Virus record (IMG/VR): IMGVR_UViG_3300043442_000977
Location: 1-24,456 of that record
DNA: 24,456 nucleotides
Strand: one strand, 5' to 3'
Source: a virus
Taxonomy: Duplodnaviria > Caudoviricetes
Below the pieces are notes generated by a model. That model ran no database searches. It saw only the letters and a program-made list of their open reading frames with translations, and was not told where the DNA came from. The position numbers and the translations under genes were made by a program. Positions 1-22,874 of the stretch are shown here, in pieces. Position 1 is the stretch's first letter. Every line of letters begins with the position of its first letter.

Positions 1-1
1 T

Positions 2-658
2 CTCCAATATGCCACTGGCACTGTTAAGGCTGCGTTTCCTGGCGCTAACCACACCATCTACTCAAAAGAAAGCTTGAGACAGTTCATAGCCGACAACTAT
101 GACACTGAAGTGCTCTGGGCTTACGATACGCTTCGTCCTTATTCGTACAAGGCAGACCTTGGGCGCTTTTGCTTGCTGAACAAGCTTGGCGGATGGTACA
201 TGGATATTGCCATCAGAATGGTAAACCCAGTGGAGATCGGCCCTCGTATTAAGATGCTTGCCTTTCGCGACATTCAGCGCTTTAGCTTCACTTCTTGGGC
301 CTGTGCCACCACTGTCCTCTATTCACAACCGGGCAATGCCGCACTGTCCACGGCAATTCAACTGATTGTTAAAAATTGCCACGAACAGTACTACGGCATC
401 ACTCCATTGTGCCCAACTGGACCAACTCTTCTGGGGCAAGCGCTTGCAATGAATGCAGGGCAGGCAGATTTTATTTATGGTGACTATCTCGAACTCACTC
501 CCACTCATGAGCAGAAGAATCGAGCCTTTGTCTTGCCGGATGGCACGATCATGGCATGGAGCAAGCCTTCTGGCGGTGGCGACCTGACCGGCGTAGGCGC
601 AAAAGGCGTTAACAATTACAATGAGCTGTGGGCGCAACGCAAGGTTTATGAAGCCTGA
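2..658 (+). CDS. Glycosyltransferase, GT32/Och1-like sugar-binding (DXD-type) family; 5' partial
   Basis: The frame is open from base 2 (LQYATGTVKAAFPGANHTIYSKESLRQFIADNY...), so the gene starts before the window. The motifs 'YSYKADLGRFCLLNKLGGWYMDI' and 'PTGPTLLG' match the xSDxxRxxxLxxxGGxYxD / TGP pattern of this family. The DxD position reads DIA. Confidence 0.8.
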   Translation, partial: LQYATGTVKAAFPGANHTIYSKESLRQFIADNYDTEVLWAYDTLRPYSYKADLGRFCLLNKLGGWYMDIAIRMVNPVEIGPRIKMLAFRDIQRFSFTSWACATTVLYSQPGNAALSTAIQLIVKNCHEQYYGITPLCPTGPTLLGQALAMNAGQADFIYGDYLELTPTHEQKNRAFVLPDGTIMAWSKPSGGGDLTGVGAKGVNNYNELWAQRKVYEA

Positions 659-1361
659 AGACTGGACCATTTACACGGCAAAACTCAAGCATCAAGCCAT
701 CACATATTCATCGCCAGCAACCATCGTTCCCATGGTTGTCAATGCTCATTCTCTGAGCGATGAGGAACGTCTTGCTCTGGCGAATGAAGGACACGCTTTT
801 GATGACGAAGGTTATCACATTTCGCAACTAAACCCTTTCTTTTGCGAACTTACTTCTGTATACTGGGCAATCAATAATTCAACTGAAAGTTACATTGGCA
901 ATGCTCATTATCGACGCAAGTGGAAAGATGCTGACATTGAAAACTCTGAGGACAATGTTTTATATGTGAGCGATCCCGCCTATTTTTCCTGCACATTGGC
1001 AGAGCAATTTCTTGGCGGCCATAACGGCTTTGATGCTCCTGCAATGACAGTCGGGCTAGCCGAGCGTGGCATGTTGCCGTTTTCTCCCAGCGAAATGCGT
1101 GCTGTATGGAACCAGAAGGTCTTCCATGGTTGCGAAATGGCTCGTGGTCCCGCCTCTCATTACAAAGCTTTTATGAATCTGCTTTTTGATTGTTTGTGGC
1201 CTTTCTGGTACGAGCACCGTGATGAAATAGAGGCGATGGAAGGATACAACAGAAGAATGATGGGCTTTGTTGGCGAGCGAATGATGACGGGGCTTATTCT
1301 GATGAGGGAAAAGTTCTTTGATTTCAATATCATGACTTCAGTCGTTGAATACAAGCCATGA
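648..1361 (+). CDS. DUF4422 (GT111-like, WbbM N-domain type) putative galactofuranosyltransferase
   Basis: The motifs 'ISQLNPFFCELTSVYWAINN', 'YIGNAHYRR' and 'RRMMGFVGER' match the DUF4422 pattern (NPxxCELTxxYW, GxxHYRR, RxxGFxxER). ATG 648 overlaps the end of the previous gene and is preferred over 621. Confidence 0.8.
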   Translation: MKPEDWTIYTAKLKHQAITYSSPATIVPMVVNAHSLSDEERLALANEGHAFDDEGYHISQLNPFFCELTSVYWAINNSTESYIGNAHYRRKWKDADIENSEDNVLYVSDPAYFSCTLAEQFLGGHNGFDAPAMTVGLAERGMLPFSPSEMRAVWNQKVFHGCEMARGPASHYKAFMNLLFDCLWPFWYEHRDEIEAMEGYNRRMMGFVGERMMTGLILMREKFFDFNIMTSVVEYKP

Positions 1362-1990
1362 TTTCGCAGCAGACTCTGGACGAAGTAAAGAGCCTTAAAC
1401 AGCTTTCGAAGGAGCCTTTGTTTTGGGTGATGGAGAATTGCAAGCCCACAGATGGCGACGATTTACTATGGCTTGAATTTGGCGTGTGGAAAGGAGCAAG
1501 TATCAATTATTTTGGCCAATTCACTCGACAAATTGTTTATGGGTTTGACAGTTTTGAAGGGCTGCCGGAAAAGTGGCGCACTGGTTTTGGAGAGGGGCAT
1601 TTTTCCATGGACGGAAAATTTCCAAATGTCAGGGACAACGTGACATTGATTAAGGGATGGTTCGACCAATCGTTGCCAGTTTTTCTGGCTGATCAGCAAA
1701 ATCGAAGCATTTCATTTGTGCATTTTGATGCTGACCTTTATTCATCTACGGCGTTTGTTCTTTCGTCCATCGCCCTTCGGCTAGCTCCAGATGCAATTTT
1801 CGTGTTTGACGAGCTGATCAACTATGAAGGTTTTGATGGGGAAAACGGAGAGCTAAAGGCCTGGGATGAATTTATTCAAAAGTACGATGTCCAATATTCC
1901 TGGATCGGAGGGCATGGAGAATTCGGAGACCATAAAACTTGCAATGAAAAAGCAGCCGTGAGGATTCACAGTGTCAAGCCCAAAGTATGA
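1358..1990 (+). CDS. Class I SAM-dependent O-methyltransferase, TylF/MycF-like
   Basis: Motifs LEFGVWKGAS, YGFDSFEGLPE, LIKGWFDQSLP, FVHFDADLYSST and FVFDE. ATGA overlap with the upstream stop. Confidence 0.85.
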   Translation: MISQQTLDEVKSLKQLSKEPLFWVMENCKPTDGDDLLWLEFGVWKGASINYFGQFTRQIVYGFDSFEGLPEKWRTGFGEGHFSMDGKFPNVRDNVTLIKGWFDQSLPVFLADQQNRSISFVHFDADLYSSTAFVLSSIALRLAPDAIFVFDELINYEGFDGENGELKAWDEFIQKYDVQYSWIGGHGEFGDHKTCNEKAAVRIHSVKPKV

Positions 1991-3098
1991 TTTCTTGATT
2001 GTCGGAAGTGGCATGTTTGGGGCAGTCTTTGCTCGCCTTGCCACCAATGCTGGCTATCGCTGCTTGGTTATTGACCGAAGAAAGCACATAGGAGGCAATT
2101 GCTACACTGAGAACAGGGAAGGCATTGATGTGCATTTGTACGGTCCTCATATTTTCCACACAAGCAACGAAACAGTTTGGCAATTTGTCAATCAATTTGC
2201 ACGCTTCAATGGTTTTGTCAATTCTCCTAAGGCCTTTGTAGACGGAAAATTGTATTCACTTCCGTTCTCAATGAATACGTTTCATGAGCTATGGGGACCA
2301 GCGGTAATCTCCCCTGAAGACGCAATGCAAATGATTGAAAAGGAGCGATGGAAAGGAGTGCCCACCAATCTTGAAGAGCAAGCGCTGTCAATGGTTGGCC
2401 AGAGTATCTACGAAAAGCTGATCAAGGGGTACACGGAAAAGCAATGGGGAAGAAAGGCCGTTGATTTGCCTTCATCGATCATTAAGCGATTGCCATTGCG
2501 CTTCACGTTTGATAGTAATTATTTCAACGATAAATATCAAGGGATACCCACGGAAGGATACACTTGCATGTTTGAACGCATGCTTGACGGCATCGAAATA
2601 GTCCTTGATACTGATTTTTTGGCTGCTCGCAGTTTTTGGAGAGATCAAAGTAATTACATTGTGTACACAGGGTGTATCGACGAATTTTTTGACTACAGGC
2701 TTGGACGGTTAAATTATCGCACGCTTGATTTTGCGCATCGCACAATAGATTGTGCAAATTATCAAGGAAATGCCGTTATCAACTTTCCATCCGTGAGGGT
2801 GCCATTTACTCGTCGAATAGAGCACAGGCATTTCAACGAGACGAAGAGCGCTGTAACGATCGTCACCAAGGAAACGCCCAGGGAATGCGAACCAGGAGAC
2901 ATTCCCTACTATCCCATCGCTACTGAAGACAATCTTTCCATTCATCGTCAGTATCAAGAACTAGCGAAAGAGGAGAGGGGTGTTATTTTTGGCGGAAGAC
3001 TTGCCGAATACAAATACATGGATATGCATGTTGTCATTGAAAGCGCCATGAACAAATGGCGAACATGGCAAAAAGCAAATGCTACGATGGTGGAATAA
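1971..3098 (+). CDS. glf: UDP-galactopyranose mutase
   Basis: FAD-binding IVGSGMFG, HIGGNCY, HLYGPHIFHTSN, GYTEKQWG, RLPLRFTFDSNYFNDKYQGIP, PYYP and GRLAEYKYMDMH. The 375-aa length is typical. Confidence 0.97.
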   Translation: MSSPKYDFLIVGSGMFGAVFARLATNAGYRCLVIDRRKHIGGNCYTENREGIDVHLYGPHIFHTSNETVWQFVNQFARFNGFVNSPKAFVDGKLYSLPFSMNTFHELWGPAVISPEDAMQMIEKERWKGVPTNLEEQALSMVGQSIYEKLIKGYTEKQWGRKAVDLPSSIIKRLPLRFTFDSNYFNDKYQGIPTEGYTCMFERMLDGIEIVLDTDFLAARSFWRDQSNYIVYTGCIDEFFDYRLGRLNYRTLDFAHRTIDCANYQGNAVINFPSVRVPFTRRIEHRHFNETKSAVTIVTKETPRECEPGDIPYYPIATEDNLSIHRQYQELAKEERGVIFGGRLAEYKYMDMHVVIESAMNKWRTWQKANATMVE

Positions 3099-3111
3099 GA
3101 TTGTTCCGACC

Positions 3112-3372
3112 ATGACTAAGAAGCAAAAGCAAGCGAAAATCTCCAAAGTCATGAAAGAATTCAAGGCCGGTACCTTGAAGAGCAGCAGCGGACAGCCAAT
3201 CACCAATTACAAACAGGCAGTTGCAATTGCATTGTCTGAAGCTGGCATGACCATGAAAAAGAAAGATGCCAGCGAGGAATACATGCGTGCATTCATTCGC
3301 CAAGTGCTTCAAGAAGAAGAAGCAATGGAAGAGGAAGAGGGTTGCATGGAAGACTCAATGGGAAAGTCCTGA
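3112..3372 (+). CDS. DUF6496-like small protein (basic N-half, acidic C-half); short product of a putative -1 frameshift gene
   Basis: 'KISKVMKEFKAGTLKSSSGQPITNYKQAVAIALSEAG' resembles the DUF6496 pattern. ATG 3112 follows the glf stop. The gene ends ATG GGA AAG TCC TGA. Confidence 0.7.
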   Translation: MTKKQKQAKISKVMKEFKAGTLKSSSGQPITNYKQAVAIALSEAGMTMKKKDASEEYMRAFIRQVLQEEEAMEEEEGCMEDSMGKS

Positions 3373-3719
3373 GGGGGGACGCTGAATCGTTCTCCCCTCC
3401 ATCGTCTGTTCGGTCTGCAGCGCGTCGCGGCCTTGAACTACGCAAGAAGCATGGCAAAGGCGGTCTAACCACGCAGGAAGCCGGCAAACAAGGCATTGGG
3501 AGCGGAGTGGCAAGAGCTTCGGACCTGGCCAGTGGCAGCGCATTGAGCTACGCCACAATCAAGCGCATGTCAGCATTCTTTTCTCGTCACGAGAAAAACA
3601 AGAGCGGCGGAGAAAATGATGCTGGCTACATTGCTTGGCTCCTTTGGGGCGGAGATGCTGGTAGGGCTTGGGCAAATCGCATCATTAAGATGGTTGAAAG
3701 CCGCGAAAAGGGCCAATGA
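3342..3719 (+). CDS. Phage head-region domain of unknown function ('WLLWGGDAG' motif); probably expressed as the -1 frameshift extension of 3112-3372
   Basis: The PPxxVRxAARRGL...GVARAxDL...TIKRMxxFFxRHE...IAWLLWGGDAGRAWA pattern resembles a domain I recall from phage head-morphogenesis proteins. The only start upstream of the domain is TTG 3342. Confidence 0.7.
   Translation: MHGRLNGKVLRGDAESFSPPSSVRSAARRGLELRKKHGKGGLTTQEAGKQGIGSGVARASDLASGSALSYATIKRMSAFFSRHEKNKSGGENDAGYIAWLLWGGDAGRAWANRIIKMVESREKGQ
3360..3399 (+). other. Putative programmed -1 ribosomal frameshift signal (G_GGA_AAG plus downstream hairpin)
   Basis: In-frame heptamer GGGAAAG at 3360-3366, 4-nt spacer, then hairpin GAGGGGGGACG-CTGAAT-CGTTCTCCCCTC (3371-3399, about 11 bp with one G-U pair and one bulge). 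The -1 frame is the open 3342-3719 ORF. Confidence 0.7.
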
Positions 3720-4027
3720 GCGAATACGTCCGTGTGATTGAAGAGGAAGAAGAAGATGGCATCGGCCTCCTGAAGGCTCTGGCAATCCTTTCGGCTCACG
3801 AGCATCGCAGCACTTCGCACTGGCGTCTTGTCGAGCGACAGCATTTTAAGAATGGTCGCCTTGACGAAACGCATATTTTTGTCGAAAGCTTTTACGAAAA
3901 GCCGGACGAGCATTTCGAGCCAGTCAAGATGCTCACCTTCGAGGCCGAGGCTATTGCCAAGGCTTATGTAATGGAAAGCATCGAAAATCAAATTCGCGAC
4001 ATTCAAGAAGAAGACGACGAAGATTGA
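3716..4027 (+). CDS. Hypothetical acidic protein (103 aa)
   Basis: ATGA coupling to the previous stop. Acidic ends (EEEEED, EEDDED). No family recognised. Confidence 0.7.
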   Translation: MSEYVRVIEEEEEDGIGLLKALAILSAHEHRSTSHWRLVERQHFKNGRLDETHIFVESFYEKPDEHFEPVKMLTFEAEAIAKAYVMESIENQIRDIQEEDDED

Positions 4028-4299
4028 GCCGCATTGACAACAAAGTTGGGCATTCCCAGCATCCACAGGACGGATATTCCATACAATCCGCTTAAAGTGG
4101 CTAGCTGAACCGCTGATGGCTCGGAATCGCCGCGCTCCATTCTGCAATAAGTCGCTTGCGAAACGTGCAGTGTGCTTGCTACGTGGCGCTGAGACAGTCC
4201 GCTGTTTTCTCTTAAGTTTCGCATCCTTGATGCAACCAACAATCTTCGCTCTGGATGCGGCATTTTTAGCGCGTTGGTTTTTTCTGTGAAAAGTTTCAT
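4003..4299 (-). CDS. XRE/Cro-C1 family helix-turn-helix transcriptional regulator (98 aa)
   Basis: 'RMRNLRENSGLSQRHVASTLHVSQATYCRMERGDSEPSAVQLATLSGLYGISVLWMLG' is a classic HTH_3 pattern. ATG at 4299 overlaps the TGA of the upstream endonuclease (ATGA), so it is preferred over 4398. Confidence 0.9.
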   Translation of the reverse strand: MKLFTEKTNALKMPHPERRLLVASRMRNLRENSGLSQRHVASTLHVSQATYCRMERGDSEPSAVQLATLSGLYGISVLWMLGMPNFVVNAAQSSSSSS

Positions 4300-4826
4300 G
4301 GCAAAAAGTGTTTGGTTATCGTCCATCCAGCGGCATTTTCCCGCTCGCCCTTTAAAACCTTTTGAAGGTTCGCTCGTTGCAACCCATGACTGCGACACGT
4401 TTTTCGTAAATTTTGAGTGACAATAATTTTTCCATCGGGGGATCGAAGGCAGAAATAGAAGCCTCGGGCACCTCCGGACATTGATCGACTGATTTTGGAC
4501 GCCCTGATAAGCTTTTCTTTTTCACCCATCCTCGAATACCATTCTGGATCGCATTGAAACTTTGCGCTTGTTTGCTTTGCCCGATTCGCAAAGTGCGGAT
4601 TTTTGTGCACTTCGTAGAAATCATGCAATACAATTTCTGCCTCTAAAGCTTCTTTGCTTGTCTCAAAAGTTGCAAGAACAATTTTTTGCGTGGGCCTGAA
4701 AGTTTTATCGCTAAAGCTTCCGAGATAAGGGTCGTCGTCGGGAGCACAGGAGGAGCTGCGCTTCCCGATGTAGCCCCTTCCCCACTCTTCGTAAGAGTAA
4801 TAGACGTAGTGCCAAGTCGCCGTCAC
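4296..4826 (-). CDS. Free-standing GIY-YIG (Seg-like) homing endonuclease with a C-terminal DNA-binding helix module
   Basis: HYVY...GYIGKR, DPYLGS, EALEAE (catalytic Glu helix) and HFAN. The C-terminal 'NLRKTCRSHGLQRANLQKVLKGER...GW' resembles NUMOD1/HTH tails. Confidence 0.8.
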   Translation of the reverse strand: MTATWHYVYYSYEEWGRGYIGKRSSSCAPDDDPYLGSFSDKTFRPTQKIVLATFETSKEALEAEIVLHDFYEVHKNPHFANRAKQTSAKFQCDPEWYSRMGEKEKLIRASKISRSMSGGARGFYFCLRSPDGKIIVTQNLRKTCRSHGLQRANLQKVLKGERENAAGWTITKHFLP

Positions 4827-4885
4827 CGATTCGCCTATGAATCACAGCTTGTAGTTTAATACATTTTTCTCTTTAGTATGTGACT
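4827..4885. promoter_or_regulatory. Divergent promoter region with candidate -10 boxes and an imperfect palindrome
   Basis: AT-rich gap between divergent genes. TAGTAT (+, 4874-4879), TAAACT (-, 4858-4853), TGTA-N6-TACA at 4850-4863 and GATTC-N6-GAATC at 4828-4843. Confidence 0.5.
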
Positions 4886-6082
4886 ATGGATTCACGCTCC
4901 TGCTTTCGCTACGACGTATCCCAAATCAGTGATTATCAAATCACGGAGGAGGGCTACCTAAAGGTTCGTGCTCGCATTGCGCGCACGGGTATTCAGTCGT
5001 ATACGGATGCAAGTGGTGGCATCCGCTTGGAATACCGCCCTGAAACTGAAGTTGCTTCTCAAGAGGCTCTTGATAGTTTCAAGGAAAAGTGTTTAACCAA
5101 AGAGCATCCCCCGGTGTTGCTCGATGCGTCAAACACAAAGGATTATGCAGTTGGCTTTACAAGTGCAGATGTCTCGTATTCCGATGGCTTCGTTGAATCC
5201 ACTTTAACAGTCACTGACAAGGACACCATTGAGGAAATCATGCGCGGCGACGTTCGCGAGGTTTCCTGTGGATACAAGGTCGATTATGTTGACGAAGCTG
5301 GCATTACGCCAGACGGTCAACATTACGACGGTTACCAAAGAAACATTCGCGGTAACCATGTGGCCATTGTCAAAAGAGCCAGAGGCGGTCCAAGTGTTCG
5401 TCTCATGCTCGACTCAGCGGATGCCGCTGTGACCGAATTGCTTACCTCTATTCAAGGAGAAATTATGTCGGCAAACATTGTGTTTGACGGCGTTTCTTTT
5501 GAGGCAGATTCCGCCCTTGCAGCCGCCATTACGGCTGAGCGTGAAGACGCGAAGGCGACTTATGCTGATATGAAACGCAAATATGATGAAATGATGGCCG
5601 AAGCTTCCAAAATGAAGGAAGAAATGGACGCCATGGGCAAGGAAATGAAGGGCAAATGCGACGCTGCCGAAGGTCGCGCTGACGCCCTCGAGCAAGAGCT
5701 TGAATCAATGAAGCTTGAGCTTGATGCTGCTAAGGAAGTGAATCTCGATTCGCTTGTTGAAGAGCGCGTTGCCTTGATTGATAAAGCTCGCACCACCCTG
5801 GATAGCGAGTTTGATTTTGCTGGCAAGAGTGCCCGCGAAGTCATGGAGGCTGCCATCAAGGCAGTTCGTGGCGATGCCCTGGATCTGTCGGAGCGTTCCG
5901 ACGATTATGTGCAAGCCATGTTCGACACGCTGGCTGAACTGCCCCGCGCTGATTCTGCTGCCACTGACGAACTCCGTAAGGCAGTGGCTTCCATTGCCAC
6001 TCCGGCTTCTGCTCCTTCTTCCTATATGGAGAAGATTCAGAACGCTTGGAAATCTCCCCTTTCTGTTACTAAGGAGCGCTGA
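4886..6082 (+). CDS. DUF2213 prohead protease fused to a coiled-coil scaffold domain
   Basis: N-terminal 'TEEGYL...IARTGIQ.Y...YRP..EV...LTKEHP...EVSCGY...QRNIRGNHVAIVKRARGG' is the DUF2213 signature. The C-half is acidic and heptad-like. The start could be GTG 4880 or ATG 4886. Confidence 0.88.
   Translation: MDSRSCFRYDVSQISDYQITEEGYLKVRARIARTGIQSYTDASGGIRLEYRPETEVASQEALDSFKEKCLTKEHPPVLLDASNTKDYAVGFTSADVSYSDGFVESTLTVTDKDTIEEIMRGDVREVSCGYKVDYVDEAGITPDGQHYDGYQRNIRGNHVAIVKRARGGPSVRLMLDSADAAVTELLTSIQGEIMSANIVFDGVSFEADSALAAAITAEREDAKATYADMKRKYDEMMAEASKMKEEMDAMGKEMKGKCDAAEGRADALEQELESMKLELDAAKEVNLDSLVEERVALIDKARTTLDSEFDFAGKSAREVMEAAIKAVRGDALDLSERSDDYVQAMFDTLAELPRADSAATDELRKAVASIATPASAPSSYMEKIQNAWKSPLSVTKER
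5465..6082 (+). CDS. Putative nested in-frame scaffold protein (205 aa) from an internal start
   Basis: AAGGAG at 5454-5459 lies 5 nt before the in-frame ATG 5465, at the protease/coiled-coil boundary. Confidence 0.55.
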   Translation: MSANIVFDGVSFEADSALAAAITAEREDAKATYADMKRKYDEMMAEASKMKEEMDAMGKEMKGKCDAAEGRADALEQELESMKLELDAAKEVNLDSLVEERVALIDKARTTLDSEFDFAGKSAREVMEAAIKAVRGDALDLSERSDDYVQAMFDTLAELPRADSAATDELRKAVASIATPASAPSSYMEKIQNAWKSPLSVTKER

Positions 6083-6084: not shown

Positions 6085-6645
6085 ATGGCCGTCACCTTTA
6101 CCACTTCGGGGACCGCTTCTGCTGGTGGTGTGCAACAGAGCTATGCTCTGACTCACACGGCTCTGCTGGAAGGTCAGCTCTCCGACATTCGCGACAACAC
6201 CATTGGCACCTACGTCAACCAGACCAGCGCTGTGCTGGCTTTTGGTAATGTGGTTGTCTACAACTCTGGCGGCACTGTCGCCAACTCGGCAGCTACCATT
6301 TCGGGCACTGGCGACGTTGTTCTTGGTATTAACGTCCTCACCTATGTTGACGAAACCGCTCTTGATTCCAACAGCCGTCCCGGCGTGAAGGACAAGCAAG
6401 TGGCAAACATTGCCAACGAAGGTGCTGTTGCCGTTTATGTTACTGGCGCCGTCACCCCTGCTTCGCCTGTTCGCGTGCTGTATTCGGCAAGCGGCACTGG
6501 CAAGGCTGGTCAGTTCAGCCATGCTTTCGCTTCTGGCAAGACTCTCCGCCTGTCCAATGCTCGTTTCCTCACCTCTACCACTGGTAGCGGCCTGGCCATT
6601 CTCGAGCTGAATGGTCCCAGCTTCACCCTTTCCGCTGATTCCTGA
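6085..6645 (+). CDS. Capsid decoration/cement protein
   Basis: Lies between the protease and the major capsid gene. G/T/S/A/V-rich beta-type sequence, AAGGAG RBS and strong codon bias. Confidence 0.7.
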   Translation: MAVTFTTSGTASAGGVQQSYALTHTALLEGQLSDIRDNTIGTYVNQTSAVLAFGNVVVYNSGGTVANSAATISGTGDVVLGINVLTYVDETALDSNSRPGVKDKQVANIANEGAVAVYVTGAVTPASPVRVLYSASGTGKAGQFSHAFASGKTLRLSNARFLTSTTGSGLAILELNGPSFTLSADS

Positions 6646-6659: not shown

Positions 6660-7577
6660 ATGACGACTGATTTTCGTATGGATGAGGCGGGGCTGTTTCT
6701 TGAGCGTCAGCTTGAGTACATCCGCCCTCAGGTGTTTGAAGTTGAGTATGCCGACATCAAATACCCCACCATTCTGCCTGTGACCAGCGAGGCTGGTAAC
6801 GCTGCGCAAACCTTCACCTACCGCATCATGGACTCCACTGGTGAGTTCCGTCTGATTGCGGATGCTGCTGACGATCTGCCCCGTGCTGACGTTAGCCAAG
6901 TGGAGAAGAGCATCAACATTCGTTCCTTTGGCGGCAGCTTCGGCTACACCGTTCAGGAACTGCGTGCTGCTCAAATGGCCAATGTCGCCCTAGAGCAGCG
7001 TCGTGCTGCTGCTGTGCGTCGTGCCTATGAAGAGAAAGTTGAAAACGTCGCCATGTTTGGCGAAAGCTCAGTTGGTCTGGCTGGCTTCTTCAACAACAGC
7101 ACTGTTGACGTGATTGCCACTGACCGTTGGTTCACTGGCACCACTGCTAGCGGCACCGCTCAGGACATGCTGGAACTGCTGAACTATGGCGTGAGCGCCA
7201 TCATCAGTGCTTCCAAAATGAAGGAGCAGCCCGACACCATCCTCATGGCCTATGAGGACTACAACAAGGTGAGCACCACTCGTAACAGTGACTCTTCGGA
7301 CGTGACTGTTCTCGAGTATTTCCTGCGCACCAACCCCTACATCCGCAACGTTGAGCCCATCAACCAGCTTGACGCGGACAATAGCGTGCTCAACACCAAC
7401 CGCATGGTTGTGTACAAGCGCGATCCTCAGAAGGTGCAACTGCACATTCCGCAGCCTCTCGAGCTGTTCCCCCCGCAACAGCGTAGTCTGGAATTCATCG
7501 TTCCCGCTCATGCCCGCGTGGGTGGTGTCGCTCTCTACTACCCCAAGAGCGTCATCTACCTTCAGGCTTCTGCCTGA
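6660..7577 (+). CDS. Major capsid protein, DUF2184 (HK97 fold)
   Basis: FLERQLEYI, GYTVQELRAAQ...EQRRAAAVRRAYEE, GLAGFFNN and RVGGVALYYP are DUF2184-type motifs. GGAGG RBS and strongly C/T-ending codons. Confidence 0.9.
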   Translation: MTTDFRMDEAGLFLERQLEYIRPQVFEVEYADIKYPTILPVTSEAGNAAQTFTYRIMDSTGEFRLIADAADDLPRADVSQVEKSINIRSFGGSFGYTVQELRAAQMANVALEQRRAAAVRRAYEEKVENVAMFGESSVGLAGFFNNSTVDVIATDRWFTGTTASGTAQDMLELLNYGVSAIISASKMKEQPDTILMAYEDYNKVSTTRNSDSSDVTVLEYFLRTNPYIRNVEPINQLDADNSVLNTNRMVVYKRDPQKVQLHIPQPLELFPPQQRSLEFIVPAHARVGGVALYYPKSVIYLQASA

Positions 7578-8753: not shown

Positions 8754-9332
8754 ATGCTCTATCATCCCACTGAGCTAGTGAAAAGCCAGGACGTTATTGT
8801 GCGTGTTGGCTCCATCGACGGCACTGCTCGCCCTGTGATCACCCAGAGCGGCGCTACATTCACCGTTAGCGGCGCCCCCACTCTCTACACCTTGCAAGCC
8901 GCTACGACGGCCTCTGTGGCCTTTAACGACGGCAACACTGAGTTCTACCTCCTGGGCGGCGGCGGCTTCTCTGATAGCGTTATCGTCACCTCTCAGGCGA
9001 CCGCCTCGATCACTTCCTACTTCCAGAAAGATGTCGATGGTACGGTGTTCCTGCCGAACAGCTTTGACGAAGCCTTCCAGGTGATCAGTGCTTCGCGCTA
9101 CAACAAGAACAGCGAAGTGTATGTGGAGATCAATAAGCAACTGGGCGCTTCCGGTACCACCTATTACTACGATCGCGTGGCTTACACGGGTCGTGTGATG
9201 AACTACAACGAAAGCTATCCTGCTGACAATCTTGTCGAAGTAACTTTTGACATTATTAGCCGTGGTCGCATTGGCATCCACCAGAACGCTGAAAACACTG
9301 GAAGCCTGATTCCTTCGGCTCCTAATAGCTGA
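8754..9332 (+). CDS. Major tail tube protein
   Basis: Capsid-like high-expression codon bias, tube-like C-terminus 'GRVMNYNESYPADNLVEVTFDIISRG', and a terminator immediately after. Confidence 0.72.
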   Translation: MLYHPTELVKSQDVIVRVGSIDGTARPVITQSGATFTVSGAPTLYTLQAATTASVAFNDGNTEFYLLGGGGFSDSVIVTSQATASITSYFQKDVDGTVFLPNSFDEAFQVISASRYNKNSEVYVEINKQLGASGTTYYYDRVAYTGRVMNYNESYPADNLVEVTFDIISRGRIGIHQNAENTGSLIPSAPNS

Positions 9333-11462: not shown

Positions 11463-14400
11463 ATGGCAGGGGAAGCTGGCGCAAGCAATGTTGGCCTTCA
11501 GCTTAGCGTTACGCTTGACTTAGCGGCATTTAGAAAGCAGCTAGGACTGGCTGCACAGGCCGCTGCCGCTTATTATTACCCAATCAATGTTTTTATTGAT
11601 AAAAGAAACTTTGATCGACAGCTAGACAATATTGATCGGCAGTTTGCGCGGAGAAATTACAGGCTAGAGGTCATTACAAATTTTGCGGCAGAAATTGACT
11701 ACGCCGATAAGTTAATCACTAAGATTCAACAAGTTAAACAGGCTGCCAATGGGGGCCAAACGGCCGGCAAAGTTCCACCGGTAGGACTTGTAAACGCTTC
11801 GAATCTAAACCTTACGAAAAAGGATCAAGGCGTATCGGTCGGCGAAATCAAGGCTCTTTACGAGAGCTTGGCAATTGCTGGTGTTGAGGGATTTGAAAGG
11901 GGCAGCAAAAAAACGCGCCTTCAAATGATTGCGCAAATTCAAACGGTTGGCCAAGACGTTATGGCTGGCCTTCTTAACGGACTGGGAAGTGGAGACGCAG
12001 CCCTTGAAGCTGCGGCAAAAAATCTTGGAACAGTATTGATTACCACTTTTAAGCGCTTGCTTGGCATTGCATCTCCATCGCGAGTGTTTCGTGAACTAGG
12101 ACGAAATATTGGAGAAGGCTTTGAGCAAGGCGTTATTGCTTCAATGGACAAGGCTTTTGACGCCTTGGAGCGACAACTTCGACAGCGTCTTGCAGTTTTA
12201 CAGGGCATGATGAGCGGAGGCAGGGGAGCCTTTCCCTTTGTTGCCAAAACTGGACCGATTGAACAAAAAGCTTTATTCGCAGAATCGGCAAATCTTGCTC
12301 GTAAAATTGATCAAACTCGCGCTGAAATTAGCCAAATTCAAGCGCGTCGCGAATCGCGCATGTCTTTACAGCGCGAATCATTAGCCCAATCGGCCGGAAG
12401 GATTTTACCTCCAGCACGAGACCGATCTTTGCCGGCGGCTCGTGGAGCGATTTTTCCCCAGGACACTGCCACTGAGCAGGTTCTGCAAGGGTTCTTCCGT
12501 TCCTTGAGGAATGCGCAAGATTTTTTTGCAAGAAATTTCTCTGCCAATACCTACCTATCGAAAGCTAGTTATCAATTTGCAACTTCAATGAACGAAGCCT
12601 CGCGGCTATTGCGAGAGCAAAGAATTGCAGGACTGCTTCCTTCGCTGGAAATGCTTGAGCCGTTGAAATTTCAACGCGCTATTCAAGCGGCTCAAAAAAT
12701 AGACGCCGCCAACGCCTTCAAGGGTTTGCTATCGACACCTTTGCTTCCTGGCGTCGGGATGACCGGCTCGACCGCTGCGGCACGAGCCACGCTTTCAGGA
12801 CAGCAATTTCGAGCACCAAGTCTCGGACGCACAGAAGCCGGCCAGCCAGGCGCTGCAATGGCTGAATCCGGCCCTATTGCTGACAGGCTTCGGCAGGCGG
12901 CGGTTAACTTCTCGAAAAATGCTCCTTCGGTCATTAAGTACCTAAACCTTTTTAGCACTGCTGGAGGAATCAACATTGGCGACCTTCCGGGGCCGGGAGA
13001 GTCTCCGGGGCAATATATTCGTCGAATTCAACAATCATTACAGCTTCAGCTTAAGCAGGGTGGCTTTGGAGCTGGAACGGTGCCGTCAAGGACGGAATTT
13101 TTTCAACCAGGAAGAGGGCCTCAGCTCCCCGGCATGCCTATTCAGCCATTGCTCCCACCGGGTGGCGGCACGGGTGGCGGCGATCGCGTGAGGGGCGTTG
13201 AACCGGATCGCGGTGGAGCGCTTGCTCTTGCAAAATCACCGTCTACCGATTTACCGAAAAATTACTTTGAAAACGCAAAGAAATATTCGGCAGCTCTTGG
13301 AATGGCGCGGGCTACTATGGACAAATTTTCGGCAGCTCAAGTGCCATTTATTGGAGGCTTACAAGGGTTGGCCGCAGAATTTGGAATGGCAACGAAGCAA
13401 GTGTTGCTGTATGGCACAGCTTATAAGGGGCTCGCTTTTGTTACCAGTCTTCCTGGACAGCTACTAAATGCCGCTAAAGGCCAACAACAATATAACAATG
13501 CTTTGAAAACTGCCACGCAAGACACTGGCACCTATGCGAAGGAGCTTCTGTATGTAGACGGCGTCCAAAGAGCTTTCGGTCTAGATCTTGAAATAACAAG
13601 ACAAGGGTTTGCTCGGCTTTATGCGTCGATGGGACCAGCAGGATTCGATTCTGGCTCTATTGAAAAACTTTTTACAGGCATTAGCGCGGCGACAGCCGCC
13701 TTGCAACTTACTCCCGACAAGGCGGAACGAGTGATTTATGCCTTTGGTCAAATGGCCAGCAAAGGGCAAATTATGAGCGAAGAGCTAAAGGGACAGTTGG
13801 GAGACGTGCTTCCCGGCGCTTTGGCCATCTTCGCCAAGGCGGCTGGAATGTCCGTGAAAGAATTTAACAAGGCAATGGAAGACGGGGAATTCGTTGGCAA
13901 ACGTTTTCGCGAAGTATTTGCTCAAGTGAGTGATCAGCTCATGACTCGCTTTGGAACGGGAGCGCAAGCAGCGGGCAGATCCCTGCAAGGCTTGCTCAAT
14001 ACGGTCAGAGGCGAGTTTCTTCGCACTTTGGAAGCATTGTCTCCCTTGGCCGATGCGGCTGCAAAAGCCGTTTTGGCTCCACTAGGAGAAGGCCTTAAGA
14101 CAATGGCCGTAGGCGCTCAAATTGCAACAGGAGAGATGGGGAGGGTTGCAAAACAAGTGCAAGAAGCACAGCAAGTTGTTGCTGATCTAAAAAAACAAAA
14201 TGCTGACCAAAAGGATATTGATGCAGCAAGTCAAAGTTTGGTAGCACTGGAGGCACGTCTTAGAAGTTTGCAGTTGGCGTCAACAGATCCGGCCATCATG
14301 GATGCAGCCAAAAACATTGACGCATTCACAAAAGAGCTAGCCAAAGCGGGCCAGTTTGTTATGACCGTTGCTCAGGGCATAGGCAGGGTTCTTGGGCCGG

Positions 14401-17282
14401 CCGTCGCACTGCTTGGCGGAAATTTCACAACTCTCGTCACTTCTGCTGTGCTTGTTTACGGAGCATTTCAAACTCTCAGGCTTTCCGTGCTTGCAGTTGT
14501 TGGCGTGTTTAAGCTTTTGGACATTGCCTCGCAAGTTGTAGGCATGAGCAAAGCGGCGCAGTCTGCAGGGGCGCTGGCCTTGGCTTTGCAAAGTGTAGGC
14601 ATTCAAGCGACGACGGCTCAAGCTGGCATGGTTGGCTTTCGTGCCGCCATTATCGCAGTGGCTGGGGCGACTGGTATTGGACTACTGCTGGTTGGACTGG
14701 GAGCACTGATCACTCATCTCATGAACGTTGGCGCTGCCGCAGACGAAAGCAAAAGAAGGCTGTCTTCTGCAATTATTGAAGCCAAGCGATTGGCGGTGGA
14801 AGGGCAAGTGATGCCGTTGGAAGCGAGAATAGCAGAAATTAAGCGAGTAGAGGCTGCGGACAAGCAAGCAATTGCTCTTTACCAGCAGTTAGAAGGTAAG
14901 CGTAGATTGGCACGGGAGAACGCTCTTCCTCTAACAGAGGAGCAAGTGGACATTTTAGGAGCATCGAAGTTGACAGAAGAGGCGCTGGGAGGACGACCCG
15001 GAGCGCGTACTTTTGAGAGCAGGGGAAACTTGGCTCGCAAATTTGCCGAAGAGAGCGCACTTAGAGCAGAAGAATTGCGAAAGTTTGAGCGACAGGTTCC
15101 AGAAGCGCGTAGGCAGGCTCAAAGAATGGGCTTAAATGTGCCCACTCCCGGACAACTTCCTCCCGATGAGCTAGACGCCAAGGCAGATGCTGCTCGTGTA
15201 AGGGCTGCCGAAAATGCTCGCAAGCTTGCGGATGATCAACGCAAGTACGAAGCTGATCTAATGAAGATGGGCGCCGAGCAAGCCATGGCCCTGGACGACA
15301 TGACCTTTTCCCATTGGAAAGACTTGCAAAAGGCTAAATACGATTTACTGGAAGCCGGTCAAAACGAATGGATGAGTCGAGAGATTAAATTCCAGCGCGA
15401 TCTTCAGGCCATTGAAATTCGTCGCATGGAAGCCGTTCGCGCTGTTCGCGCTGAAACACAAAAAGCAGAAATAGAAGCGCAATCACGAGCATATATTGCG
15501 GGCGGGAAGACTGGCGCCACTGGCCTTCTGCAGGGCAGTACTGGCGTTTCTAGTGGTCCACATTTTGATGTGAGGCGAGCCGATGGAACACGCATTTCAG
15601 AAGCCGAAGCTCGTGCACTGTTTGATGAAAGCGTCAGAAAACGATTGCAAATGACTAGCGGATACGGCCCGCGCAATACTGGTATTCCGGGTGCTAGCAC
15701 CTTCCACCGTGGAATTGATCTTGCTGGACCCGCAAATACACCCCTAAATCTTGCCCCTGGTTATTCAATGTTAAGTGCGGGCATGGAGGGCGGATTGGGT
15801 TATACAGCTAATATTCAGGGTCCTCAAGGTCAAAGATATAAAGTGGGACACCTGCAACAGCCCCAGGGAGGTGCTCCTGCATCACGAGTAAGAGCGGAGC
15901 AGAGAAAGGATAACAATGAAGCACTTGCAATGCAAGCGGCAGTCAACGCAAAGGAGCGAGAGTCGCTCGGAATCAAGCAGGCCAATGCTATGGCTCAGCA
16001 GGAGATAAATATTTTAATTAAAGAGTATGTGGCATCAATGATACCTGTCGAACAACAAAAACTGGAAAATTCCTTGATGCAAGATCGCATCAACTTGATG
16101 TCTTCTGGGGTTCTTGGTGAAGCGTTAAACACTGAAATAGCAATCAACAAGGCTAAGCGGCAAACTGCACTTGGCATTGCGGAGTCGGAAAAGATTATTG
16201 CTGATAACGCTGAGCTTGTTAAAAAAGGAGGGAAGGAAGCCGAAAGAGCGGCAAACAATATTGCCTTTCAAAGACAAAAAATTGATGAAGCCAAAAAGGC
16301 TCTTGAGAACTATTTGCCACTTTTACGAGAGCAGTTGCAGCTCCAGCAACAACAAGCGGAAATGGAGCTTCGAGGGTCAATCCAGCGAGCCACTCCACTA
16401 GGCGGAACAGGATTATCTGGCGGCTTCATTGGAGAAGCGGCATCTCGTTACGAGGAAGCGCTTGGCAGGGGGGCGTCGCAGCAAGACGCAACGCGTTTTG
16501 CAGAGCTTCAGAATCAATTGACCATGCTCGAAACGCGAAATAATGCGGTCAGATCTTCGATTTTGGCCATTGGAGACGCCTTCGGCACTGCCATGACCGC
16601 TGGAGTGGCAAGCCTTGTAGACGGCACCGCGAGCGCCCAGGAAGTGTTTGCTAATTTCTTGAAGGGCGTTGGCGAAGCCCTGTTGCAAGCTGCGCAACAA
16701 ATGATCGCCACTTACATTGCCATTGGCATTGCCCGTATTTTTGCGGGCCTTGGCAGTTCCCTTGGAGGTGCCAACGCTAATCTAAGCGGCACTGGCGCAT
16801 TGGCTTCGCCAGTTTCTGGACTCTCTGTGGGTGGCGCATCTGCCGTAACAAGCTATGCTCCCTCGGCCGTCTCAACTTCTTTCGCCGGCGCTGCATTCCC
16901 GGCGTCTTCCTTCACGCCATTTGCAAATGGTGGAATCGTCAATGGTCCCACTCTCAGTCTTATGGGCGAAGGCAAATACAATGAAGCCATTGTCCCCTTG
17001 CCTGATGGTCGCTCCATTCCCGTGCAACTAAGAGGTTTCTCCCAGGGGTCAAGAGACCTTATTGGCTCTTCTGGTTCTTCTGCAGGATCTCCCGTGCTCA
17101 ATATGAGTTTTGAGACTACGACGATCAATGGAGTGGAATATGTTAGTAGAGACCAGCTCGAGCAGGCTATGATGGAAACACGCAAAAACGCTGCTCGCGA
17201 AGGCGCTGCTCGTGGTGCTTCTCTCGCCATTGACAAGCTTCAGCAGAGTCCCAGCACTCGTCGGAAAGTTGGACTGGCTTAA
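11463..17282 (+). CDS. Tail tape measure protein with an embedded M23-like peptidase domain
   Basis: 1939 aa, Ala/Gly/Gln-rich. Tape-measure domain 'GQMASKGQIMSEELKGQLGD', 'LGIASPSRVF', C-terminal 'FANGGIVNGPT...GEG...EAIVPL', a hydrophobic central stretch, and 'TSGYGPR...HRGIDL'. Confidence 0.93.
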   Translation: MAGEAGASNVGLQLSVTLDLAAFRKQLGLAAQAAAAYYYPINVFIDKRNFDRQLDNIDRQFARRNYRLEVITNFAAEIDYADKLITKIQQVKQAANGGQTAGKVPPVGLVNASNLNLTKKDQGVSVGEIKALYESLAIAGVEGFERGSKKTRLQMIAQIQTVGQDVMAGLLNGLGSGDAALEAAAKNLGTVLITTFKRLLGIASPSRVFRELGRNIGEGFEQGVIASMDKAFDALERQLRQRLAVLQGMMSGGRGAFPFVAKTGPIEQKALFAESANLARKIDQTRAEISQIQARRESRMSLQRESLAQSAGRILPPARDRSLPAARGAIFPQDTATEQVLQGFFRSLRNAQDFFARNFSANTYLSKASYQFATSMNEASRLLREQRIAGLLPSLEMLEPLKFQRAIQAAQKIDAANAFKGLLSTPLLPGVGMTGSTAAARATLSGQQFRAPSLGRTEAGQPGAAMAESGPIADRLRQAAVNFSKNAPSVIKYLNLFSTAGGINIGDLPGPGESPGQYIRRIQQSLQLQLKQGGFGAGTVPSRTEFFQPGRGPQLPGMPIQPLLPPGGGTGGGDRVRGVEPDRGGALALAKSPSTDLPKNYFENAKKYSAALGMARATMDKFSAAQVPFIGGLQGLAAEFGMATKQVLLYGTAYKGLAFVTSLPGQLLNAAKGQQQYNNALKTATQDTGTYAKELLYVDGVQRAFGLDLEITRQGFARLYASMGPAGFDSGSIEKLFTGISAATAALQLTPDKAERVIYAFGQMASKGQIMSEELKGQLGDVLPGALAIFAKAAGMSVKEFNKAMEDGEFVGKRFREVFAQVSDQLMTRFGTGAQAAGRSLQGLLNTVRGEFLRTLEALSPLADAAAKAVLAPLGEGLKTMAVGAQIATGEMGRVAKQVQEAQQVVADLKKQNADQKDIDAASQSLVALEARLRSLQLASTDPAIMDAAKNIDAFTKELAKAGQFVMTVAQGIGRVLGPAVALLGGNFTTLVTSAVLVYGAFQTLRLSVLAVVGVFKLLDIASQVVGMSKAAQSAGALALALQSVGIQATTAQAGMVGFRAAIIAVAGATGIGLLLVGLGALITHLMNVGAAADESKRRLSSAIIEAKRLAVEGQVMPLEARIAEIKRVEAADKQAIALYQQLEGKRRLARENALPLTEEQVDILGASKLTEEALGGRPGARTFESRGNLARKFAEESALRAEELRKFERQVPEARRQAQRMGLNVPTPGQLPPDELDAKADAARVRAAENARKLADDQRKYEADLMKMGAEQAMALDDMTFSHWKDLQKAKYDLLEAGQNEWMSREIKFQRDLQAIEIRRMEAVRAVRAETQKAEIEAQSRAYIAGGKTGATGLLQGSTGVSSGPHFDVRRADGTRISEAEARALFDESVRKRLQMTSGYGPRNTGIPGASTFHRGIDLAGPANTPLNLAPGYSMLSAGMEGGLGYTANIQGPQGQRYKVGHLQQPQGGAPASRVRAEQRKDNNEALAMQAAVNAKERESLGIKQANAMAQQEINILIKEYVASMIPVEQQKLENSLMQDRINLMSSGVLGEALNTEIAINKAKRQTALGIAESEKIIADNAELVKKGGKEAERAANNIAFQRQKIDEAKKALENYLPLLREQLQLQQQQAEMELRGSIQRATPLGGTGLSGGFIGEAASRYEEALGRGASQQDATRFAELQNQLTMLETRNNAVRSSILAIGDAFGTAMTAGVASLVDGTASAQEVFANFLKGVGEALLQAAQQMIATYIAIGIARIFAGLGSSLGGANANLSGTGALASPVSGLSVGGASAVTSYAPSAVSTSFAGAAFPASSFTPFANGGIVNGPTLSLMGEGKYNEAIVPLPDGRSIPVQLRGFSQGSRDLIGSSGSSAGSPVLNMSFETTTINGVEYVSRDQLEQAMMETRKNAAREGAARGASLAIDKLQQSPSTRRKVGLA

Positions 17283-17284
17283 TC

Positions 17285-17671
17285 ATGGCTGATTTTCCTA
17301 CGCTACGACCAACAAGCCGTTCGCTTACCTTCGGGCAGTACCCCATAAAGACTTATCGTGCTTTATCTGGGAAAGTATTGCGTCGCAGCTTTGGCAATAG
17401 GCCCTTTGGTCACACTCTAGATCTCACTTTTGAGAATGTTGTTGACGAGACGGTAAACCAAGTTTTTGATCATTACAATGCTCAACAGGGCGGCACTTTA
17501 GGATTTGCACTACCAGATTCAATCTTCTCTGGTGCCTCCGCCAGTATGATCAGCCGCCTGAAGACTCCCGCTGGCATTGAATGGATTTATGCAGAGCCTC
17601 CATCCGTCGAAAGTGTGTTCGATGGGAGGAGTAGTATCAGTGTGAAATTAGTGGGCGAGATTGTTCCATGA
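17285..17671 (+). CDS. Distal tail protein (lambda gpM-like position)
   Basis: Immediately follows the tape measure. 128 aa, with an 'LDLTFENV...FDHYNAQQG...F.LP' pattern. Confidence 0.6.
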   Translation: MADFPTLRPTSRSLTFGQYPIKTYRALSGKVLRRSFGNRPFGHTLDLTFENVVDETVNQVFDHYNAQQGGTLGFALPDSIFSGASASMISRLKTPAGIEWIYAEPPSVESVFDGRSSISVKLVGEIVP

Positions 17672-18186
17672 GCACTTTGCGCATTGTTCAATACTTCACG
17701 CTTAAGGCGTATGCAAGTGATTTTAATTGGCTCGAGCCTGAGAATTCTGGCAGCAATAAGGACAAGGTGTATCGACACTACTATCAAAACTTTTTCGTAA
17801 ACGAAACGAAAAGGTGGAACAATGAGAACTATCAATTTGCCCCATTTCGAGTGGAAGGCACGTCCTCTGCTCTTGGTGGCGACAATCCTATGGCTCAAGT
17901 GTTGTTTCCAAATGTGGAATACGCCATTCGCTTAGTAGAGCAAGGCAATGGAAACAGGCTTAGTAAGCTAATAATCACGACGGCATGGCTGAACGAAGCC
18001 CTGCAGCCGGATGCAAGGGTTTACCAAGAAAGATACATTGGCCTTGGTGCCGCTTTTTCTGAAACCACTATTGAGCTTCGTTTTAGAAGTGCAATGGACA
18101 GTGTGTCTGGGCGCTTTCCGGCTCGAACATTTTCCCGAAACAATGTTGGTCTTCTCCCATTGAGCGCTGATTTGTCGTTCCGTTAA
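17668..18186 (+). CDS. Minor tail tip protein (gpL-like position)
   Basis: Synteny, ATGA overlap, and the 'YQFAPF' and 'FPARTF' motifs. Confidence 0.55.
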   Translation: MSTLRIVQYFTLKAYASDFNWLEPENSGSNKDKVYRHYYQNFFVNETKRWNNENYQFAPFRVEGTSSALGGDNPMAQVLFPNVEYAIRLVEQGNGNRLSKLIITTAWLNEALQPDARVYQERYIGLGAAFSETTIELRFRSAMDSVSGRFPARTFSRNNVGLLPLSADLSFR

Positions 18187-18196
18187 GGAGCATAAA

Positions 18197-22867: not shown

Positions 22868-22874
22868 TTGCTTT

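Follow-up and report, generated by a model that had tools for sequence, protein, structure and literature searches.

The window, 24,456 nt of viral DNA taken as a whole, opens with four overlapping, co-oriented open reading frames on the plus strand at 2..3098, which ORF calls and Pfam matches confirm as real genes. The first (2..658, +) encodes a GT32-type glycosyltransferase (PF04488, E 2e-6) with a DXD-like DIA motif; it runs off the 5′ end of the contig and, compared with the relative L001, is missing about 18 codons. Its protein falls in Atlas GT32 clusters at 0.97-0.98 and matches yeast Och1 (9n3s) weakly (E 0.01). An 11-nt overlap leads into a GT111/DUF4422 gene (648..1361, +; DUF4422 E 6e-23), for which alignment of the family gave 648 as the start and whose product is a predicted Galf transferase of the Glf-linked clade. 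Through an ATGA overlap this gene is joined to that of a TylF/MycF-family SAM O-methyltransferase (1358..1990, +; TylF E 1e-8, Methyltransf_24 E 6e-11), which scores 35.3 bits against the PF05711 cut-off of 23 and matches the solved sugar O-methyltransferase CalS11 (E 4e-7). The last gene, overlapping by 20 nt, is an intact glf for UDP-galactopyranose mutase (1971..3098, +; Pfam GLF E 9e-79; TIGR00031). Pfam, fold comparison and TIGR00031 thus uphold the identities given in a first-pass annotation of this DNA (GT32-like, DUF4422, TylF/MycF-like and glf). Third-position GC is 0.46 in the three distal genes, 0.55-0.65 in the GT32, cement and capsid genes and 0.42-0.47 in the tail genes; since the tail genes are equally low, the low value is a weak sign of recent gain.

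The same annotation had set the cassette directly upstream of the head genes, which proved incorrect, as glf and the protease gene at 4880 are separated by five genes, three of them small and two antisense. The small genes are a conserved DUF6496 gene that closes the variable slot on the right (3112..3372, +; Pfam and relatives), a conserved phrog_2859-like gene of uncertain start (3342..3719, +; family match and relatives) and a conserved gene for a 103-aa product (3716..4027, +; ORF and relatives), the last of a co-oriented block led by the portal gene. It is with this portal-led block upstream that the cassette belongs. The antisense genes encode an HTH regulator conserved as S-CBS4 gp21 (4003..4398, −; Pfam and relatives) and a homing endonuclease with a patchy distribution across relatives (4296..4826, −; family match and relatives). 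Then come the head maturation protease/scaffold (DUF2213; 4880..6082, +; family matches), the capsid cement protein (6085..6645, +; Pfam), with 23% Ser+Thr and a C-terminal Ser, and the major capsid protein (6660..7577, +; Pfam), 86% identical to its S-CBS4 counterpart. The product of 8754..9332 (+), which had no family match, is by its position the probable tail tube protein; it has 20% Ser+Thr and a Pro-rich tail with Ser at its end. Cement, capsid and tube proteins are the candidate acceptors discussed below.

A promoter and terminator scan of the window gave nothing above chance level; the 6 terminator sites, against 7.4 ± 2.9 in shuffles and with none on the plus strand between glf and 4027, are uninformative. 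RNA contigs (one entry, pooled from 4 runs) span the head genes and 3646-3828, with none over the cassette; because contigs are no proof of absence and the sample may contain DNA, they carry no expression evidence either way.

A hypervariable slot in S-CBS4-like cyanophages

Judged by its sequence, the source contig is an S-CBS4-like cyanosiphovirus from freshwater. In two near-identical relatives (L001 and L002, cassette proteins 91-98% identical to those of the window), terminase, portal, a 226-aa gene and a GT4 glycosyltransferase gene lie upstream of the cassette. The terminase and portal genes for which the first-pass annotation advised a search are therefore in place, and since they and GT4 stand upstream in such close relatives, the cassette is phage DNA within the head module; a host chromosome flank or a prophage boundary at this point is ruled out. 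One contig (run X1) matches positions 1-4029 without a difference and extends 8,151 nt further upstream. The genes for portal, the 226-aa protein, GT4, GT32, GT111, TylF, Glf and DUF6496 in L001 overlap or are 2-37 nt apart, and of the 89 loci whose sequence reaches 2.8 kb or more beyond GT4 on the upstream side, 87 have a portal gene there (loci not de-duplicated). The cassette had been described as a self-contained pathway of four genes; this has to be amended, because the relatives carry a fifth enzyme, GT4, just outside the contig. The host, moreover, would have to supply UDP-galactopyranose. The Glf profile had no match in S. elongatus, the sole cyanobacterial genome checked for host supply, and a literature search on UDP-Galf in Synechococcus found nothing. 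The five capsid matches in genome contigs were rejected as pointers to a host: four were short phage-like contigs from unrelated metagenome bins, and the fifth was a match of 20 residues.

The slot between portal and protease in S-CBS4-like cyanophages is hypervariable. Among 76 complete slots, GT32 is present in 72 and GT111 in 65, and Glf in just 4; GT111 clades other than the Glf-linked one pair with other sugar pathways or with none. In FastTree trees the Glf module sits on three separate GT32 branches, and Glf and GT111 stay together whether or not the TylF-type gene, which is absent from L153, L223 and L251, stands between them. Breakpoints at the GT32 end and in the downstream small genes, together with discordant trees, show that the distal module is exchanged between strains by recombination. 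By hydropathy, none of the slot enzymes has a membrane segment (maximum 19-residue mean 1.75). Searches of isolated phages returned no match for GT32, and for GT111 only 7 unannotated faecal contigs; GT32, GT111, TylF and Glf had no match in the first 42 kb of S-CBS4.

Enzymes of the cassette

Glf scores 387.5 bits against the equivalog TIGR00031 (cut-off 303.75), carries the FAD and active-site motifs, and matches the solved structures 4mo2 (E 7e-131) and 1i8t (E 5e-130, full length). At two positions, which presumably decide GalNAc use, it has His and Lys as in 1i8t, where 4mo2, which we take to be the C. jejuni enzyme, has Arg. The model of GT111 (pLDDT 94) has WbbM 6u4b as its top fold match (E 6e-11, TM 0.71), which places it in the DUF4422/WbbM N-terminal fold, and its CELT...HYRR motifs are those of WbbM. 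All eight Glf-bearing loci fall within one GT111 clade of nine members (support 100), the slot of the ninth member being cut by a contig end; in the other 72 phage GT111 sequences the corresponding motif is QYRR in 71, and the pattern is unmatched in one. Clade, motifs and fold thus sustain the earlier suggestion that Glf is paired with a cognate DUF4422/GT111 transferase, and GT111 is predicted to transfer Galf from UDP-Galf; with only one lineage of GT111 carrying Glf, linkage alone could account for part of the pairing. GT111 and Glf are described as classic lipopolysaccharide/galactan enzymes, in an account that gives the GT111 family one characterised member and leaves the own role of PamA undefined (PMC12269835). 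For such a family, the phage GT111 clades provide a natural series for donor specificity.

The upstream GT4 has chlorovirus B736L as its best solved match, both by sequence (E 2e-25) and by fold (E 5e-24, TM 0.81), at 23% identity. B736L binds GDP-mannose and is uncharacterised; as the capsid glycans reported for NY-2A lack mannose (PMC9614988), it is not tied to capsid glycosylation. The next fold neighbours, BshA, MshA and PimB, are small-molecule and glycolipid transferases. Outside the S-CBS4 group, 46 GT4 loci were placed: 40, of one lineage, adjoin the large terminase gene, 5 lie among virion or tail-fibre genes and 1 is non-structural. In Microcystis phage Mae-JY09 GT4 stands two genes after the capsid gene; in Synechococcus phage S-EIV1, the closest isolate outside S-CBS4 (43%), it adjoins the primase gene; homologues also occur among clustered sugar genes in Flavobacterium phage immuto and away from structural genes in L306.

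The methyltransferase leads to mycobacteriophages. It matches Corndog gp35 (42%, E 3e-32) and the C-terminal part of Che8 gp108 (44%, E 6e-24), and 114 of the 117 matching records in the phage collection are named Mycobacterium; the M. avium chromosomal locus mtfA is one row among the matches listed. In cluster O mycobacteriophages, the region from portal to protease is described as holding one O-methyltransferase and three transferases (PMC4351075), and modification of the capsid and tail tube is attributed to these enzymes (Freeman 2023, via PMC11600133 and PMC12363180). Indeed, the Corndog gene map shows methyltransferase and transferases in the same portal-protease slot, an arrangement that our cassette shares. 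The Che8 transferase genes (gp108-gp110 region) sit at the right end of the genome; the statement that mycobacteriophage glycosylation genes lie among structural genes is thus correct for Corndog but not for Che8, the two phages checked. Corndog gp36-gp38 have no sequence match to the slot proteins, nor to the GT4, GT32 and GT111 profiles, in a comparison that took in Corndog's transferases and not those of Che8. Because none of Corndog's transferases, gp38 included, has a match among the slot enzymes, the initiating chemistry differs.

Discussion

By prediction the cassette makes methylated galactofuranose and attaches it, likely giving the virus particle a strain-specific sugar coat. We propose, as the reading that is probably correct though far from certain, that the five enzymes GT4, GT32, GT111, TylF-type methyltransferase and Glf build a short O-methylated, Galf-containing glycan on the candidate virion proteins. 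In this mechanism, the conserved GT4 would add the first sugar and GT32 would extend the chain; Glf, as its family membership predicts, would turn host UDP-galactopyranose into UDP-Galf; GT111, with its WbbM fold and motifs and its strict co-occurrence with Glf, would transfer Galf; and the TylF-type enzyme, a family member whose target may be one sugar of the chain, would O-methylate it. Module swapping between strains would then produce different virion glycan types, and the likely purpose is to shield or alter the particle surface.

Several lines of evidence support virion glycosylation: Corndog uses this slot too and its methyltransferase is a homologue, the cassette genes are tightly coupled to the portal gene, GT4 elsewhere often lies near terminase or virion genes, and Glf co-occurs with one GT111 clade that bears WbbM motifs. 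Support also comes from slot enzymes without membrane segments, a rare integrase and, in five relatives, the absence of a ThyA-type hydroxymethylase. It is weakened by the lack of a Corndog transferase match among the slot enzymes, by GT4 homologues away from structural genes (S-EIV1, immuto, L306), by the classic role of GT111 and Glf in lipopolysaccharide and galactan, by the proposed part of a phage Glf in DNA galactosylation, and by a capsid C-terminus that is not a conserved Ser. Counted over distinct sequences, the cement protein ends in Ser/Thr in 75 of 87, the tube protein in Ser in 32 of 48 and the capsid protein in Ser in 17 of 70, which is about chance with 12 families examined. S-CBS4 alone matched among cement homologues without the cassette, so there is no control set, and a C-terminal Ser is only a lead as an acceptor sign.

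A rival explanation, which we regard as unlikely, is that during infection the cassette alters the surface of the host cell, its LPS O-antigen or exopolysaccharide, by adding and methyl-capping Galf, thus blocking superinfection or changing grazing. The GT111, Glf and GT32 families normally serve bacterial surface-glycan synthesis, hypervariable modules of donor and transferase genes look like O-antigen loci, the M. avium mtfA locus is a TylF homologue, and cyanomyovirus sugar genes are usually read in this way, as described in PMC12801897. Against this stand the coupling of the cassette to the portal gene and the annotated slot types, which hold no membrane protein, flippase or GtrA-like gene. 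An integrase, in addition, occurs in just one of five near-complete relatives, and none is annotated in S-CBS4. GtrABC serotype conversion relies on a membrane flippase and a membrane transferase in a temperate phage; the slot proteins include no membrane segment and no such family. Soluble enzymes, however, can act on lipid-linked intermediates, so these observations weaken the explanation and do no more.

It is also conceivable, at a low probability, that the target of glycosylation late in infection is a small molecule, a host protein or a non-structural protein of the phage; a defence or receptor protein of the host might, for instance, be inactivated in this way. The slot enzymes are all soluble by hydropathy, the fold neighbours of GT4 act on small molecules and glycolipids, and the acceptor of B736L may not be a capsid. 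Nevertheless, multi-step, strain-variable, methyl-capped glycans would better suit an exposed surface, and both the position and the methyltransferase link to Corndog and Che8 point to virions.

That the cassette glycosylates the DNA of the phage at about the time of packaging, to guard it against nucleases, is improbable. In its favour, a galactosyl-hydroxycytosine pathway proposed for Pootjesviridae includes Glf (PMC13326640), phages of Rhizobium, Agrobacterium and Aeromonas carry Glf homologues, and GT4 adjoins terminase in one lineage and primase in S-EIV1. The phage-encoded Glf of Pootjesviridae (RL38J1) is 41-43% identical, but that pathway is described as needing a thymidylate-synthase-like hydroxylase and as sitting with nucleotide genes (PMC13326640), and none of five near-complete relatives has a ThyA-type synthase/hydroxymethylase (control positive in 10 of 14 genomes) or, in a search without a working control, a Tet_JBP match. 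ThyX, dCTP deaminase and ribonucleotide reductase came up in a Pfam scan of two genomes (G001 and G003, 133/192 ORFs), in which hydroxymethylase, dioxygenase, cytosine methylase and polymerase all lacked a match. The best 50 fold matches listed for GT4 include no T4 DNA glucosyltransferase. Known DNA-glycosylation transferases are described as clustering with base-modification partner genes (bioRxiv 2023.12.21.572611). No hydroxylated-base enzyme of the T4, RL38J1 or 5mYOX type was found in the relatives tested, an indirect test because all five lack Glf. That the genes are passengers from a host glycan locus without phage function is hardly credible: the low third-position GC of the distal genes would fit, but the window and relatives as distant as 63-69% identity keep every one of the four reading frames intact, GT32 is kept in 72 of 76 complete slots, and S-CBS4 retains its own three-gene version.

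Returning to virion glycosylation, we tentatively extend it to a particle serotype system in S-CBS4-like freshwater cyanophages, an extension somewhat more likely to fail than to hold. A fixed GT4-GT32 core would prime virion proteins, and a swappable module of GT111 and donor genes would set the outer sugar (galactofuranose, C-methyl-branched, amino-deoxy or host-supplied); phage GT111 may have radiated into several donor specificities marked by the change from HYRR to QYRR, and this would be the first galactofuranosylated virion. The published cases that we found of demonstrated virion glycosylation in tailed bacterial phages are actinobacteriophages, where it is explained by antibody evasion (PMC11600133, PMC12363180). 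A variable glycan coat on lake cyanophages, if true, would imply a selective force other than antibodies, none of which act there; candidates are grazers, particle binding, host decoys, proteases and receptor use. None of the Glf-bearing genomes is complete. With S-CBS4, an isolate in culture that has the same core GT4, the question can be tested now.

Comparison with known systems

In S-CBS4 the same slot holds gp14-gp16, already annotated in RefSeq: a GT4 with 62% identity, then a transferase and a methyltransferase. It differs in having a GT2 and another methyltransferase there. The GT111 domain of Klebsiella WbbM shares the fold and the CELT and HYRR motifs, and in Kingella pamA-pamB a GT111 is encoded together with Glf (PMC12269835); the phage GT111, by contrast, is a single-domain protein without a GT8 partner, export system or LPS locus. 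Chlorovirus B736L and A546L are the closest solved relatives of the core GT4, and chloroviruses likewise are described as having virus-made capsid glycans with O-methyl caps (PMC9614988), but these are eukaryotic giant viruses, and the B736L acceptor may be something other than the capsid. Corndog has the slot position, a homologous methyltransferase and soluble enzymes in common with this phage; a C-terminal Ser is found there in capsid and tube, and here in cement and tube. Unlike Corndog and Che8, this phage adds the donor-making Glf, likely has a cyanobacterial host and swaps its distal module between strains. From gene comparison, the cassette is predicted to work like the Corndog/Che8 system; as the comparison with the Corndog transferases gave no homologue of the essential one (Corndog gp38/Che8 gp110), it is placed beside that system and not filed as a member of it.

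Organization of the cassette

The 24,456-nt window, which is the complete virus record, opens with four overlapping ORFs on the plus strand (2-3098), and the enzyme families given to them in the first-pass annotation agree with their Pfam matches: PF04488 (GT32-type), DUF4422, TylF/Methyltransf_24 and GLF. The Glf score is above the equivalog cut-off, and solved mutases align with Glf over its full length. WbbM, the Klebsiella galactofuranose (Galf) transferase with a GT111 domain, is the sole PDB sequence match of the DUF4422 protein and the top fold match of its model (pLDDT 94; E 6e-11, next E 1e-4).

The left side is seen in two IMG/VR contigs, L001 and L002, whose cassette proteins are 91-98% identical to those of the window: a minus-strand terminase is followed by one small gene, the portal gene, a gene of 226 aa, a GT4-type GT-B transferase and then the four genes. 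From portal through DUF6496, the genes overlap or are 2-37 nt apart. Considering this left side and this spacing, the cassette is phage DNA coupled to the portal gene, with terminase and portal both upstream, and comprises five enzymes instead of the four first described. The 226-aa gene has no match in Pfam and is presumably ‘MuF-like’; the portal of L001 (L001:3999-6047) has a C-terminal DUF5872 domain, present or absent depending on the relative. On the right, the cassette had been placed directly upstream of the head genes, which is incorrect: three small plus-strand genes (ending at 4027) follow glf, then two antisense genes, an HTH gene and a homing endonuclease; the protease, cement and capsid genes lie beyond these. 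A terminator scan of the window gave chance-level hits only, which leaves the earlier statement that there is no obvious terminator neither strengthened nor weakened.

The capsid protein shares 86% identity with that of Synechococcus phage S-CBS4; of the 1,395 phage records with a capsid match, the other 1,393 are <60% identical. Kinship with S-CBS4, the one pointer to a host, suggests a picocyanobacterium; the sequencing runs best matching the window are freshwater metagenomes. Four S-CBS4-like contigs (L244-L247) are inside metagenome bins labelled Nanopelagicaceae, Gammaproteobacteria, Rhodobiaceae and Polynucleobacter, labels that likely reflect mis-binning.

Module exchange in the portal-to-protease slot

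The slot between portal and protease was compared in 118 GT4 loci, which, after removal of 19 duplicates of contigs already included, gave 99 contigs, 76 of them with a complete slot; the sample is biased, being the best 80 matches per query. The slot is hypervariable, with GT32 in 72/76 complete slots and GT111 in 65/76. After GT4, 42 slots (and one frameshifted copy) have GT32 and GT111 alone, while a small methyltransferase is added in 9, an epimerase and DegT aminotransferase in 3, a sugar C-methyltransferase set in 9 (6 with GT111, 3 with GT2) and Glf in 4 (2 of them with TylF); the other 8 are of other types (GT2, GT-D, FkbM, radical SAM). Three further Glf-bearing slots are on metagenome contigs L251-L253.

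Compared with the window, the near-complete relative G001 (L081) has a protease 97%, a GT32 89% and a GT111 40% identical; TylF and Glf are absent from its slot, and its DNA matches window positions 1-665 and then again from 3148. L001 has the same cassette, and its protease is only 72% identical. Thus, slot modules are exchanged between relatives; the breakpoints fall at the 3' end of GT32 and in the small genes. The N-terminal part of the protease (4880-5580) has two exchangeable alleles: matches to L001 DNA are confined to 1-4095 and to 5537 onwards, and a contig of sequencing run X1 joins 4029 to 5579 with different letters between. Further downstream (11463-24454), the tape measure and tail genes are strongly unlike those of G001 and G003, another near-complete relative (tape measure 29-76%, short stretches only), so the tail module is exchanged as well.

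Other slot contents were also recorded. In G001, a second insertion site between the 226-aa gene and GT4 (L256:14848-17256) holds three extra ORFs, one a xylose-isomerase-like TIM barrel. A recurrent 205-236-aa slot gene (cluster c9; L211:5280-5933 and five more loci) has no Pfam-A or PHROG match and is DUF8361 in Atlas (0.98), where the clusters are mostly viral and one is named glycosyltransferase; it is a candidate new transferase family. One S-CBS4-like contig has an in-frame GT4-GT25 domain fusion (L327:4276-6162), two slots (L121, L139) have a radical SAM/SPASM gene after GT4 instead of GT32 and GT111, and three (L089, L099, L192) have a GT2 gene on the opposite strand, with a GT-D gene in 2/3.

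Pairing of GT111 with Glf

In a GT111 tree of 82 rows, the Glf-bearing rows (8/8) are in a single nine-row clade (support 100), the ninth row being a slot cut at the contig end. Its members carry the WbbM motifs CELT and HYRR; outside the clade, 71/72 phage rows have QYRR and one has no pattern match. C-methyltransferase rows form their own clade of 15 (support 99; two are open slots with no partner seen), as do epimerase-DegT rows (6 rows, support 90). The GT32 tree requires three changes of the Glf module, each forced by well-supported branches, and TylF was gained or lost between GT111 and Glf with the pair kept. This pattern fits a cognate donor-transferase pair, as support and not as proof, because it involves a single GT111 lineage and because neighbouring genes tend to move jointly. 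No glf was found elsewhere in the genome of five near-complete Glf-less relatives. Another 78 viral contigs (L003-L080) have a Glf 50-63% identical; the window's other cassette and head genes are absent there except for a distant GT111 (L056) and an endonuclease (L007).

In titles and abstract starts outside subscription journals, we found no description of a cyanophage virion glycan, of the slot or of a phage GT111-Glf pair. This analysis adds the Galf module, the pairing of GT111 clade with donor, and the relationship of slot enzymes to Corndog gp35, Che8 gp108 and chlorovirus B736L.

Proposed function

The data show the genes, families, folds, synteny, module exchange and clade pairing; beyond these, we propose an order of steps, with donors, acceptor, timing and purpose, in which the cassette probably glycosylates a virion protein late in infection. 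GT4 would prime the protein, GT32 would extend the chain, Glf would make UDP-Galf out of the host pool for GT111 to add Galf, and the methyltransferase would cap a sugar.

Three alternatives were weighed besides a passenger role, which is scarcely credible. First, the enzyme families would also suit editing of the host surface (excerpts of PMC12269835 and PMC12801897); however, coupling to portal is a poorer fit, the slot enzymes include no membrane proteins and only 1/5 genomes has an integrase, so this is unlikely. Second, that the target is another protein or a small molecule is very unlikely. Third, DNA modification has a phage Glf precedent (PMC13326640, in part), but it too is very unlikely: a ThyA-type synthase is in 0/5 relatives (95-100% complete, all without Glf, making the test indirect), and in two of these five a scan of 133 of the 192 listed ORFs found no hydroxymethylase, dioxygenase or cytosine methylase. 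The list comprised ORFs of up to 1,500 aa, and the scan covered those outside the head genes, the slot and part of the tail genes.

The setting of the GT4 family speaks for virion glycosylation: among 46 non-S-CBS4 loci, 40 adjoin terminase and five are among virion genes, and in Mae-JY09 GT4 is inside the head-neck genes. The closest solved relative of the core GT4, chlorovirus B736L, counts on the same side. Against it, the S-EIV1 homologue adjoins primase, and those of immuto and L306 are in non-structural clusters. In TJE1, the homologue has sugar-nucleotide genes for company, and terminase follows a few genes later. The C-terminal Ser signal on candidate acceptors is weak. B736L itself is described in part of PMC9614988 as binding GDP-mannose, with no known acceptor. 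An unrelated phage lineage (L266-L304 and others, 40 loci) has the same GT4 family next to a large terminase that contains an intein, the two genes being divergently oriented; a GT17 and a GH130-like gene accompany them.

Comparison with known systems

The S-CBS4 slot, where RefSeq already has transferase annotation (gp14-16), starts with the same GT4 (62% identical) and continues with GT2 and a different methyltransferase. Glycosylated virions are reported for Corndog, Che8 and Myrna (passages of PMC12363180, PMC11600133, PMC11256854 and PMC12619734, citing Freeman 2023), and in Corndog an O-methyltransferase and three transferases are between portal and protease (PMC4351075, in part). The window methyltransferase shares 42% identity with Corndog gp35 and 44% with the C-terminal region of Che8 gp108, which, like the Corndog gene order, speaks for the virion reading. 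The Corndog transferases have no sequence match to the slot enzymes, which counts against the virion reading. As no essential transferase is shared, we do not class the window cassette as Corndog-type, but apart from this difference, the two cassettes would work alike.
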